DNA from: Candidatus Omnitrophica bacterium CG11_big_fil_rev_8_21_14_0_20_41_12
GTDB taxonomy: Bacteria > Omnitrophota > Gorgyraeia > Gygaellales > Profunditerraquicolaceae
DNA length: 64,000 nucleotides
Assembly (NCBI GenBank): GCA_002796135.1
Contig: PCWB01000027.1
Location: 1,724 to 65,723, forward strand
Direction of reading: 5' to 3'
In this document: positions 1 through 14,378 of the stretch, one piece after another
Position numbering within the stretch: the stretch's first letter is position 1
Layout of the letters: each line of letters begins with the position of its first letter
Notes under the pieces: generated by a model
The model's input: the letters and a program-made list of their open reading frames with translations, nothing else
What the model was told of the DNA's origin: nothing
Database searches by the model: none
Translations under genes and position numbers: made by a program

Positions 1-773
1 AATACCGGTAATTTCAATATCTGCTTATCAAACCAATATCTACCTTTTTCAGTCTTAAGATAATTTTTGAATAAATATATACCTACACCAATACCAATCA
101 CGGTATACAAGAAATATTTTCTTAAAAGGTCACTGGCAAAAATTAAAACCTGCGTCGGCATAGGCAGTGTCCCGCCGAGAGAATCAAATATCCCTTTAAA
201 CGTAGGAACCACCTTAAGCAAAAGCACTGCTGTAATAACCGCTGCCATACTCACAACTACTGCAGGATAAACCAGGCTTGAAGTAATCTTTCGGTTAAGC
301 GCTGCCTGCTTTTCCATAAAGGTGGCTAAACGATCCAGGATCTCATTTAACATACCGGATGCCTCTCCGGCTTTGGTCATATTAACAAACAGCTCTGAAA
401 AAACCGCCGGGTGCTTGGCCAAAGCATCACAAAAACTTACTCCCCCTTCTATATCATTTTTTACTCCCCCGACAATACCTCTTAAATTTTCATTTTCAAT
501 CTGTTCAGATAGAATCCCTAGGGCATTGACCAGGGGAATACCTGCATCGATCATCGTGGCCAGCTGACGGGAAAAGATAACCAGATCTTCAAGCTTAACT
601 TTCTTATCACCGGACTTGCGCTTAACCGCAGCAGCTTTAGCAGCTCCTATAGAAACAACCACCAAATCTTTTTTGTGCAAGATATCGGCAACCTCTGTTT
701 CACTTTCAGCCTGAAGTATTCCGGTAATCGTCTGACCTTTTATATCTTTTGCGCTATATTGATAGGAGTTCAT
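1..773 (-). CDS. pilC: Type IV pilus assembly / T2SS platform protein PilC (GspF family). The N-terminal ~257 aa are in the window; the 3' end runs off the window edge.
   Basis: Reverse-complement translation from ATG at 773 gives MNSYQYSAKDIKGQTITGILQAESETEVADILHKKDLVVVSI...DLVIFSRQLATMIDAGIPLVNAL..., a typical GspF/PilC N-terminal domain. It is not in the ORF track because there is no in-window stop. Its ATG overlaps the TGA of the upstream HD-GYP gene (ATGA). Confidence 0.85.
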   Translation of the reverse strand, partial: MNSYQYSAKDIKGQTITGILQAESETEVADILHKKDLVVVSIGAAKAAAVKRKSGDKKVKLEDLVIFSRQLATMIDAGIPLVNALGILSEQIENENLRGIVGGVKNDIEGGVSFCDALAKHPAVFSELFVNMTKAGEASGMLNEILDRLATFMEKQAALNRKITSSLVYPAVVVSMAAVITAVLLLKVVPTFKGIFDSLGGTLPMPTQVLIFASDLLRKYFLYTVIGIGVGIYLFKNYLKTEKGRYWFDKQILKLPV

Positions 774-1840
774 AGATTATCCATTATTTTTAAAAATGCA
801 TCAACAATTTTTGGGTCAAATTGCGTTCCGCTATTACGCTTAATCTCCAAAACCGCCTCGTCTTTAAGGAACGGCACTTTCCTGTAGGAGCGGGCCGAAC
901 GCATCGCCTCATAAGCATCGGCAACATGGATTATGCGGGCACCCAAAAGAATATCATTACCTTTTCTACCTTCCGGATAGCCTGAACCGTCATAATGTTC
1001 ATGATGTTGCCTAATTAAGTCTACCACTTCGTTTAAAAAAGTCAACGGTTCCAGGATTTGGGCCCCGATAGTCGGATGCTTACGTATCTGCTCCCACTCA
1101 ATGCTGGTAAGAGCGGTTGTCTTTAATAATATGTTATCGCTAATCCCGATCTTACCTAAATCATGCAATTCACAAGCCTGCCGCAATACCTCAATCTCTT
1201 TTGCCGAAATTTTTAGATAATTTGCGATAGCAATAGCAATCCGCGCAACATTCTCAGAATGACTATGCGTATAATGATCTCTAGCATCGATTGCCTGGGC
1301 CAAAACCTTAATCGTACGCATATAGGTTGACCGTAGATCCTCATAAAGGCGGCTTAAATTAGTCGTGGCATCCTCAATCCTTCTGGCCAAAAGCGTATTC
1401 TGTTTTTCAAGGGCCTGATTGGCCTCTTTCAAGCCTTGAGAAAATTTACGGTTAGCCAAAAGTAAGGCGTGTAATTTAACCCCTTTTTCAATAATAAATT
1501 TTAATTTCTCTATGTTGAACGGGCGGATTAAAGAATCATATATTCCCGCCTCGGCCAGCTCTTTTGCTTTTTGTTCTTCACCGTTCTCAAGCAGAATAAC
1601 GATTATACAATCAGGATCAATTTTTTTAAGTTCATTGATCAGCCAAAGCGCATCTGCCTGAGAGATCGCATACCTTATAAAAACTAAATCATAATTATTC
1701 TGATTTAGGCTCGTAATACCTGAATGCGGATTGGATTCCACGCGAATAGAATAAGCCCCCAAGCCAAGTATCTGTTCTTTAACGTAACCAGAATATGCTG
1801 TATCTTCACAAAATAAAAGTATTTTCCCGCCGTTGCTCAT
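770..1840 (-). CDS. HD-GYP c-di-GMP phosphodiesterase with a degenerate (pseudo) receiver domain, RpfG-like
   Basis: The C-terminal HD-GYP domain carries HDLGK...HHEHYDGSGYP. The N-terminal CheY-like fold has the phospho-acceptor position occupied by Arg (DLVFIR versus DLVLLD), and K109 is also replaced by Arg (SLIRPF). Confidence 0.85.
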   Translation of the reverse strand: MSNGGKILLFCEDTAYSGYVKEQILGLGAYSIRVESNPHSGITSLNQNNYDLVFIRYAISQADALWLINELKKIDPDCIIVILLENGEEQKAKELAEAGIYDSLIRPFNIEKLKFIIEKGVKLHALLLANRKFSQGLKEANQALEKQNTLLARRIEDATTNLSRLYEDLRSTYMRTIKVLAQAIDARDHYTHSHSENVARIAIAIANYLKISAKEIEVLRQACELHDLGKIGISDNILLKTTALTSIEWEQIRKHPTIGAQILEPLTFLNEVVDLIRQHHEHYDGSGYPEGRKGNDILLGARIIHVADAYEAMRSARSYRKVPFLKDEAVLEIKRNSGTQFDPKIVDAFLKIMDNL

Positions 1841-1842
1841 AC

Positions 1843-13190: not shown

Positions 13191-13208
13191 TCCGCCAGGT
13201 AGCGGAAC

Positions 13209-14282
13209 TTAGTTACGTACTTCGGTTTTTACCGGTACGGTTACTTTCTTAAGATACTGGATTTCGCTGAGCACAATTCCGGTTCCATTGGCAACCGCAG
13301 TAATTGGATCATCAGTTATATGCACAGGGAGACCGGTCTCTTCGGAAATTAATTTATCTAATCCCCTTAATAATGAACCTCCGCCGGCCATCACAATACC
13401 ATGGTCAATAAGATCGGCGGCTAACTCCGGAGGAGTCCTTTCCAGGGAAATTTTTGTACATTCCAGTATCGCCCGCAAAGGTTCCTGTAAGGCCTCGCGT
13501 ATTTCTTCACTGGTAACCGTTACAGTTTTAGGAAGCCCGGCAACTAAATCCCTTCCTTTTACTTCCATGCTGATCTCTTCTTCCAAAGGATAAGCTGAAC
13601 CGATCTTGATTTTAATATCTTCTGAGGTTCGTTCACCAATCATCAGATTATATGTCTTCTTAAGATACTCGACTATCGCTTCATTCATCTCATCGCCACC
13701 GATGCGAATGGATTTTGAAAAAACCGTGCCGGCCAATGAAATCACCGCAATCTCGGTAGTCCCGCCACCGATATCAATAATCATATTACCCACGGGTTCC
13801 TGAATAGGCAAGCCTACTCCAATAGCTGCGGCAATCGGCTCTTCAATCAGGAATACTTCCCTTGCTCCGGCACGCTCCGCAGAATCCTTGACCGCTCGCC
13901 TCTCTACTTCAGTTATACCTGAAGGAATGGCAATAACAATTCTAGGCCTGACTAAAACTTTACGGTGATGCACCTTCTTAATAAAATACCGAAGCATAGC
14001 TTCGGTAATCTCAAAATCAGAAATAACTCCGTCTCTCATCGGCCTGATGGCAATGATATTACCGGGAGTTCTGCCCAGCATACGCTTAGCCTCATCTCCT
14101 ACAGCCAAGACATGCGAAGTACCGCGCTCAATCGCTACTACCGAAGGTTCGCACAACACTACCCCTTCACCTTTAACAAAAACTAGGGTCGTAGCTGTCC
14201 CCAAGTCAATTCCCATATCATTGGAAAAAAGACCCAAAATATAATTAATCGCTTTTTTTAACTTTTGGCTGAAGTTGCCCAT
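13209..14282 (-). CDS. mreB: Rod shape-determining actin homolog MreB
   Basis: ...[23 protein letters not shown]... and the full actin/Hsp70 fold. Start placed at the internal ATG at 14282 preceded by AGGAGA; the longer ORF-track start adds 23 non-conserved residues. Confidence 0.9.
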
Positions 14283-14378
14283 GTTATTTCTCCTGAAATT
14301 GCTGAATTTTGGCAGTAGGAGAATTCTAACAAAGATTAAACCCTTTGTCAAATAAAAACTTACCGAAATTTGCCCATC

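Follow-up and report, generated by a model that had tools for sequence, protein, structure and literature searches.

The DNA considered here is a 64,000-nucleotide (nt) stretch from Candidatus Omnitrophica bacterium CG11_big_fil_rev_8_21_14_0_20_41_12 (contig PCWB01000027.1, positions 1,724 to 65,723), called the window in the following. In it, twelve genes follow each other on the minus strand, from position 14351 down to position 1, in the order mreB-mreC-mreD-mrdA-rodA-radical SAM-HAMP/GAF/GGDEF-MshEN-pilB-pilB-REC/HD-GYP-pilC (open reading frame listing, Pfam, and NCBIfam); all twelve genes and their domains are present as an earlier reading of the DNA, the original prediction, had given them. 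The question raised by such an order is whether the elongasome and the type IV pilus motor form there one overlap-coupled operon with a dedicated set of genes for cyclic di-GMP (c-di-GMP) turnover, as the original prediction proposed, or whether two operons stand side by side. We consider it likely that an elongasome operon lies beside a separately promoted pilus-motor operon, with the sensing of c-di-GMP outsourced to a stand-alone MshEN protein.

Two promoter-like sites are present on the minus strand, each with 11/12 matches to the consensus. Before mreB (14323..14351), the -35 element TTGACA (14351-14346) is followed, after a 17-nt spacer, by a TG-extended -10 element TAGAAT (14328-14323). 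At the start of the pilus unit (7266..7294), the elements are TTGATA (7294-7289) and TATAAT (7271-7266), with a 17-nt spacer in between, and the -35 overlaps the final radical SAM codons. Each junction of all loci was scored in a sigma-70 consensus scan over equal regions of ~130 nt, with a threshold of at least 10/12. Such matches occur at the aroA-mreB junction in 28/29 loci, at the radical SAM-GGDEF junction in 49/55 loci (9/12 with a 17-nt spacer in the remaining six), and at all six junctions where the radical SAM gene is directly followed by MshEN; every other junction has them in 0 to ~10% of loci. The spacer is always 17 nt in the recurrent promoters at aroA-mreB and at radical SAM-GGDEF/MshEN. 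When the radical SAM/GGDEF junctions of eight genomes are aligned, TATAAT is invariant, TTG is conserved, and the remaining spacer is variable. The same junction in distant Omnitrophota carries TTGACA or TTGAAC and, after 17 nt, TATACT or TATAAT. Recurrent promoters are confined to two junctions, and we accordingly predict exactly two of them, each heading a unit of its own. With strong comparative support, this indicates two adjacent units with their own conserved promoters.

No terminator is predicted between the radical SAM and GGDEF genes, and the predicted sites of that region lie within genes. Promoters and terminators separating the two gene sets had been named in advance as what would speak against co-expression; a distinct conserved promoter is there and a terminator was not found. 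A single mreB-to-pilC operon containing a conserved internal promoter-like element, with read-through from the mreB promoter, is thus possible.

The packing of the genes does not help to decide. The start of mreB is ATG 14282 (357 amino acids, aa), after an AGGAG ribosome-binding site, and not TTG 14351; that of the GGDEF gene is ATG 7211 (473 aa), with a conserved GGAG ribosome-binding site and the support of its orthologues. Because the corrected mreB and GGDEF starts widen two gaps, the stated maximum of 44 nt for the gaps is only partly right: It does not apply to mreB-mreC (107 nt) and radical SAM-GGDEF (72 nt) and is correct elsewhere (2-44 nt or overlaps). The ATGA overlaps reported for mrdA/rodA and HD-GYP/pilC are present, with an additional one at mreC/mreD. 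The minus strand, though, holds 60 of the 63 called genes of the window; gaps of at most 44 nt are found at 53/60 same-strand junctions, and 4-nt overlaps number 14. The median gap is 0.5 nt in the whole window, 10 nt within the gene string, and -1 nt outside it. Unrelated genes also overlap (mtnP/ileS, ileS/dksA, coiled-coil gene/aroA). Unrelated housekeeping genes are in the same string (the riboflavin operon, nusB, ligA, an xerC-like gene, cca, rbfA, ribF, the mraZ-to-ftsA division/cell-wall cluster, yggS, proC, mtnP, ileS, dksA, lspA, lgt, rluD, the coiled-coil gene, and aroA among them). Co-directionality and short gaps are therefore uninformative here on a shared operon, and the tight packing that had been offered as operon evidence, being equally tight across the window and joining unrelated genes, loses its weight.

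The adjacency of the mre and pil parts is, on the other hand, not a chance juxtaposition, an outcome that the original prediction had left open. When species-representative genomes are scanned with the radical SAM protein, the best loci belong to Candidatus Omnitrophota (66-79% identity), and the full block is present in close relatives (tblastn and open reading frame mapping from the radical SAM side). The core block is present also in distant Omnitrophota, with the radical SAM protein ~43% identical (L012, L017, L021, L025, L026, L032, L067, L073), in the order mreBCD-mrdA-rodA-radical SAM-[GGDEF]-[pilT]-MshEN-pilB1-pilB2-[HD-GYP]-pilC; one Omnitrophota locus, L013, is without the pil part. 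With a second anchor, an alignment of the stand-alone MshEN searched against metagenome contigs, 39 loci were obtained; the radical SAM gene is upstream in 39/39, pilB is downstream in 39/39, and GGDEF is present in 37/39. From both anchors, therefore, the mre/pil adjacency is kept across the phylum. As a control without functional rationale, the aroA-mreB junction is kept in 18/20 Omnitrophota loci. Given this near-equal conservation, synteny alone shows no functional coupling, and its use as proof of function was rejected, since the two genes of the control are unrelated and split by a promoter.

The two halves of the block differ in their distribution and content. In loci of Planctomycetota, Bacillota, and Acidobacteriota, the mre-rodA-radical SAM block has no pil genes with it. 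In distant Omnitrophota, the pil part also has pilT, for a PilT ATPase, between the first regulator gene and MshEN, and genes for type IV pilins (with an N-terminal FTLVE-type motif) after pilC, as in L012 (3766-4830 and 10242-11590), L017 (4037-5100 and 10515-11500), and L032 (7885-13500 and 19291-20400). With pilT and pilins, this part thus makes up a complete pilus operon by itself. In L032, there is a PAS histidine kinase between rodA and the radical SAM gene, and a CheY-like receiver stands in place of the GGDEF protein.

The first unit would be read from the promoter at 14351-14323 and contain mreB-mreC-mreD-mrdA-rodA and the radical SAM gene. The five components of the elongasome are complete. 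The gene mreB (13209..14282; Pfam MreB_Mbl E = 1e-149; orthologues mostly of the same length, 357 aa) is followed by mreC (12328..13101; Pfam MreC E = 4e-44) and mreD (11861..12331; Pfam MreD E = 5e-8), then by mrdA for the PBP2 transpeptidase (10135..11850; NCBIfam TIGR03423, pbp2_mrdA, 531 bits for a cut-off of 455) and rodA (9038..10138; TIGR02210, rodA_shape, 391.6 bits for a cut-off of 336.7). The last gene of the unit (7284..9035) encodes a B12-binding radical SAM protein of the TIGR03960 family (635.9 bits for a cut-off of 462.3). This gene adjoins rodA in several phyla; in the literature searched, no mention of TIGR03960 was found.

In the spacer between mreB and mreC (13146..13206, minus strand), three GC-rich hairpins without a U-tract can form (-38 kcal/mol, z = -4.0 versus shuffles). 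The original prediction had placed there a pair of hairpins without a U-tract; the location and the missing U-tract are right, the number is three and not two. An origin in dispersed repeats was rejected, as the central hairpin occurs once in the 64-kb window. We compared the mreB-mreC spacers of the window and of L005, L006, L011, L082, L083, L088, L089, and L097. Recurring hairpin modules, such as CCGCCACCTGGCGG and CACCAACGC...GCGTTGGGTG, make up the hairpins after mreB; their copy number is 0 to ~4 across relatives (they are absent in some), and the spacer length is 17-168 nt. A stabilising or partly terminating effect of the hairpins on the mreB message is probable. In a whole-window Rfam scan at the gathering threshold, no c-di-GMP riboswitch or other known RNA was present in the region. 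The sole Rfam matches in the window are a flavin mononucleotide (FMN) riboswitch upstream of ribBA (55854-56080, minus strand) and one tRNA (50195-50268), both at a large distance upstream of the gene string.

The second unit would be a type IVa pilus motor operon, read from the promoter at 7294-7266 and extending from the GGDEF protein through PilC. The first gene (5790..7211, minus strand like those that follow) encodes a membrane-anchored HAMP-GAF-GGDEF protein (Pfam). At the position of the catalytic signature, DDDEF is aligned to the GGEEF of the solved cyclases 3ign and WspR (HMMER), and it departs from GG[DE]EF. The orthologues present DYDEF, GDDEF, SGDSF, ASDRF, TSDKF, SEADF, or KADEF, and only L012 has GGDEF. 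There is no I-site; GEVD stands where RxxD would be. Synthesis of c-di-GMP by the DDDEF protein is, from these residues, very unlikely. With its catalytically dead GGDEF domain, the protein could have a signal-input or scaffold role.

The phosphodiesterase side is different. The eleventh gene (770..1840; Pfam, NCBIfam) combines a pseudo-receiver with an HD-GYP domain, in which the motifs ELHDLGK and HHEHYDGSGYP (HDxGK and HHExxDGxGYP) are kept in all orthologues. The alignment of the protein with the solved enzyme PmGH (4mcw) spans residues 157-355 (Pfam HD_5 E = 1e-31), and the HD-GYP domain looks intact from its motifs. The Pfam match of the receiver is weak (36 bits), and, in an alignment with CheY, D57 is R, K, H, or S and K109 is R, S, W, or A in all orthologues. 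Thus, pilus ATPases do stand beside c-di-GMP-type genes, as had been claimed, and the complete turnover set is not there, because the GGDEF domain is degenerate and without I-site and the receiver has no phospho-acceptor Asp. The gene for the platform protein, pilC (1..773; Pfam T2SSF, NCBIfam PilC/GspF), is truncated by the window start to its N-terminal 257 codons; its orthologues have 402 aa. In close relatives, a 16S rRNA gene comes after pilC (on the same strand and ~380 nt downstream in L001, at L001:19850-21435), so the gene string ends at pilC, just past the window edge.

The eighth gene (5324..5770) encodes a protein of 148 aa that consists of a stand-alone MshEN domain (Pfam PF05157, E = 3e-18; NCBIfam c-di-GMP motif, 59 bits). 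With phmmer, it matches 5htl (residues 7-117 on 7-117), the PilB N-domains 5zfr/5tsg (query 7/8-146), and PilF, which is the best solved match (E = 8e-46), so that both subdomains of the MshEN/GSPII fold are covered. The motif described by Wang et al. consists of two copies of RLGxx(L/V/I)(L/V/I)xxG(L/V/I)(L/V/I)xxxxLxxxLxxQ (PMC5013675), and we looked for it in each of the three proteins of the window that have an MshEN domain. Among nine orthologues of the stand-alone protein across the phylum, L10, G11, G18, L25, L29, Q32, G40, I54, and Q61 are invariant, and G47 is present in the window protein and in 7/9 aligned orthologues. The two arginines are replaced in all orthologues, R9 by Q, P, K, or A and R38 by L. 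A relaxed form of the Wang et al. regular expression was set aside; it misses the stand-alone MshEN in most orthologues solely via the first residue and is superseded by the extended consensus. In PilF, GSPII-B has K and L instead of the arginines and binds c-di-GMP at 6 nM, and the consensus was extended to (R/K/L)LG... (PMC11731258); the Leu that begins motif II in all orthologues fits it. The best 120 database matches are all of 146-149 aa and are labelled hypothetical or mislabelled PilB; this is a large Omnitrophota family of stand-alone MshEN proteins. A literature search for stand-alone MshEN proteins or for an mre-pil link in Omnitrophota yielded nothing specific, which is not proof of absence.

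The same positions are different in the MshEN domains fused to the two ATPases. The genes pilB1 (3564..5279) and pilB2 (1843..3558) are paralogues (44% identity of the products) with Pfam T2SSE matches of E = 1e-136 and 2.5e-131. At positions 11 and 40, where the motif has Gly, the residues are Thr and Ser in PilB1, Ile and Arg in PilB2. The loss is shared by close PilB orthologues, and some distant PilB2 retain the Gly of motif II. In MshE, G11I or G11L abolishes the binding of c-di-GMP (PMC5013675). The fused domains of PilB1 and PilB2 are thus probably non-binders. Since the stand-alone protein keeps its contacts, the fused domains have lost their glycines, and the arginine-less GSPII-B binds, the stand-alone MshEN is a credible predicted receptor for c-di-GMP.

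PilB1, an extension-type ATPase, has every catalytic motif (Walker A, Asp box, Walker B, His box, tetracysteine); PilB2 has all but one residue of them, the initial His of the His box. Phylum-wide, those PilB2 orthologues that are catalytically intact have Gln (or Glu/Ala) instead, with TGH changed into TGQ, whereas PilB1 retains TGH; the two ATPases may thus divide the work or form a heteromeric motor. Both stay below the cut-offs of the two NCBIfam models: For the type IV-A PilB (TIGR02538), the scores are 633.8 and 626.5 bits, below the cut-off of 675.65, and for GspE (TIGR02533), they are 603.4 and 582.9 bits, below the cut-off of 630.25. The assignment to a pilus rather than to type II secretion follows from the context, the pilT and pilin genes of the distant relatives.

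In the mechanism that we favour, c-di-GMP would be made elsewhere in the cell and sensed in trans by the stand-alone MshEN, which would then act on the PilB1/PilB2 motor or on the PilC platform; the co-encoded HD-GYP protein would lower c-di-GMP locally. The elongasome/pilus neighbourhood is ancient in the phylum and would be due to general gene-order stasis, with possible read-through, and not to a dedicated checkpoint between wall growth and the pilus. Several observations weigh against this arrangement of two units with a split sensor. The two promoters are sequence predictions and not expression data. The junction has no predicted terminator, and its -35 element overlaps the stop codon of the radical SAM gene, so that transcription begun at the mreB promoter may run on into the pil genes. 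An adjacency kept down to ~43% radical SAM identity goes unusually deep if the neighbours are unrelated. Motif I of the window MshEN begins with Gln, outside the published R/K/L set (relatives have K, P, or A). The loss of binding in the PilBs is inferred from four glycine positions only, and both PilBs exceed the 38-bit cut-off of the NCBIfam model for the c-di-GMP motif (52.8 bits for PilB1, 44.4 for PilB2). Finally, MshEN and HD-GYP outlast eroded or lost pilB, pilC, and GGDEF genes, which a role purely dedicated to PilB does not predict.

This last point leads to another explanation, in which MshEN and HD-GYP are a general c-di-GMP signalling module that just happens to be located in the pil operon. 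The module would then act not on the neighbouring PilB1/PilB2 motor but on something else, such as an envelope process or a different ATPase of a pilus or secretion system. In L006 (11849-13494) and L011, pilB1, pilB2, pilC, and the GGDEF gene are gone, and the order is radical SAM-MshEN-HD-GYP-rRNA. In one Omnitrophota sublineage (L103, L124, L144, L008 at 6958-10299, and L010 at 7860-11206), both PilBs are full-length, the Walker A, Walker B, or His-box motifs are eroded, and no pilC was detected at these loci; the first His of the PilB2 His box is there K, R, or H. All these loci keep MshEN (72-82% identical to that of the window) and HD-GYP (~69-71%) behind the radical SAM gene, with the promoter still upstream. 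Such retention makes a different target conceivable, and Omnitrophota commonly encode several pilus systems (PMC10066038). However, in all 39 metagenome loci that extend downstream, pilB comes directly after MshEN; in distant relatives, MshEN stands between pilT and pilB1, and the closest solved relatives of MshEN are the N-domains of PilB and PilF. The loss of pilB was, moreover, read from these loci alone, and relocated pilB genes may lie elsewhere in those genomes. On balance, a general module is unlikely.

The twelve-gene super-operon of the original prediction, in which a c-di-GMP checkpoint would tie pilus extension to the lateral wall synthesis of the Rod system, fares no better. It has in its favour the phylum-wide adjacency seen from both anchors, a junction without terminator, co-directional genes with short gaps, and the fact that MshEN and HD-GYP stay on the mre-radical SAM block where pilB and pilC are lost. 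Against it stands a conserved independent promoter placed exactly at the junction. The packing and the 4-nt overlaps are genome-wide, as judged from the window, and join unrelated genes; the aroA-mreB junction is conserved nearly as well; the halves exist separately in other phyla. The degenerate GGDEF domain means that there is no local synthesis, and none of the c-di-GMP genes carries a domain pointing to peptidoglycan or MreB. With the internal promoter, the window-wide packing, and the degenerate GGDEF, there is no support for a single overlap-coupled operon with its own turnover set, and we regard the super-operon and its checkpoint as improbable. Beyond the conserved adjacency, little speaks for an elongasome-pilus checkpoint, the probability of which is low. 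In a related form, signalling would reach a heteromeric PilB1/PilB2 motor and also the elongasome, and a real c-di-GMP link from wall growth to pilus activity would result; we give this form very little credit.

That the c-di-GMP-type genes are relics or act independently of the nucleotide, with a non-binding MshEN and the proteins as structural accessory factors of the pilus, is very improbable: The replaced arginines R9 (Q/P/K/A) and R38 (L), the degenerate GGDEF signature without I-site, and the degenerate receiver would fit it, but the remaining ligand contacts of MshEN are all invariant across the divergence of the phylum, the PilF GSPII-B binds tightly with K and L in place of the arginines, and the fully conserved catalytic motifs of HD-GYP imply a substrate.

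Other features of the window concern the neighbours of the gene string. The division/cell-wall cluster at 24348-41868 contains mraZ, rsmH, an ftsI-like gene, murE, murF, mraY, murD, ftsW, murG, murC, murB, ddl, an ftsQ-like gene, and ftsA; between murG and murC, there is a gene of the Peptidase_MA_2 family (30371-31141). After ftsA, a 318-nt gap is followed by an unannotated putative lipoprotein of 160 aa and then by yggS. No FtsZ signature (GGGTGTG-type) is present in any frame of the 64-kb window, and ftsZ may be elsewhere in the genome or absent. Downstream of the division cluster, the order is ileS-dksA-lspA-lgt-rluD (16634-21898), which we take to be comparable to the ftsA...ileS-lspA-rluD arrangement of Bacillus subtilis. 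Such a likeness is consistent with a strong retention of the ancestral gene order in this genome. A membrane-anchored coiled-coil protein of 286 aa (15695-16555) has a gene with a 4-nt overlap with aroA, and this gene keeps its place upstream of aroA-mreB in Omnitrophota as distant as L025 and L032.

The proposed pilus unit resembles known systems in several respects. As in the MshE/PilB systems (Vibrio cholerae MshE, Myxococcus xanthus PilB, Clostridium perfringens PilB2), an MshEN domain with two 24-residue motifs is tied to a PilB-family ATPase and PilC, and c-di-GMP would be expected to gate extension (PMC5013675, PMC11656802). Unlike in those systems, the MshEN that is motif-competent by sequence is a separate polypeptide, and the ATPase-fused MshENs are without Gly11 and Gly40. 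Thermus thermophilus PilF similarly mixes binding and non-binding GSPII domains (PMC11731258). The stand-alone MshEN keeps each glycine, leucine, and glutamine contact, and, as in GSPII-B, its motif II begins with Leu and its arginines are replaced. The three GSPII/MshEN domains of PilF are, however, in cis on one ATPase of 889 aa, whereas here the binding-type domain is split off, two ATPase paralogues follow, and motif I in the window starts with Gln.

Control in trans has a parallel in Xanthomonas, where RpfG (REC-HD-GYP), a GGDEF protein with dispensable cyclase activity, a small PilZ receptor, and the motor ATPases PilT/PilU act together (PMC3749722); for trans-acting motor control, FimX-PilZ-PilB offers a further parallel (PMC8389850). 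In the Omnitrophota unit, by contrast, the receptor is MshEN and not PilZ, the receiver is not phosphorylatable, and all parts are predicted to be encoded in one operon with the ATPases. Two PilB-family extension ATPases serve one pilus also in Acinetobacter baylyi (PilB and TfpB; PMC11656802); the pair described here differs in being tandem paralogues, conserved as a pair phylum-wide, with a lineage-wide H-to-Q change in the His box of PilB2. On the elongasome side, content and order are those of other mreBCD-mrdA-rodA operons with a TIGR03960 neighbour (the rodA-radical SAM pair occurs also in Planctomycetota, Bacillota, and Acidobacteriota), and the Omnitrophota block is unlike them in being directly followed by a pilus motor operon.

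The Omnitrophota are uncultured, ultra-small bacteria in which type IV pili are thought to mediate host attachment (PMC10066038). A conserved pilus-motor operon with its own predicted promoter is now defined for them, together with a small and extremely conserved candidate receptor for c-di-GMP that is apart from the ATPases it presumably controls. A link to the elongasome, if true, would be more surprising than the split sensor; the split sensor, if true, would add a trans-acting form to the control of pili by MshE and PilF.

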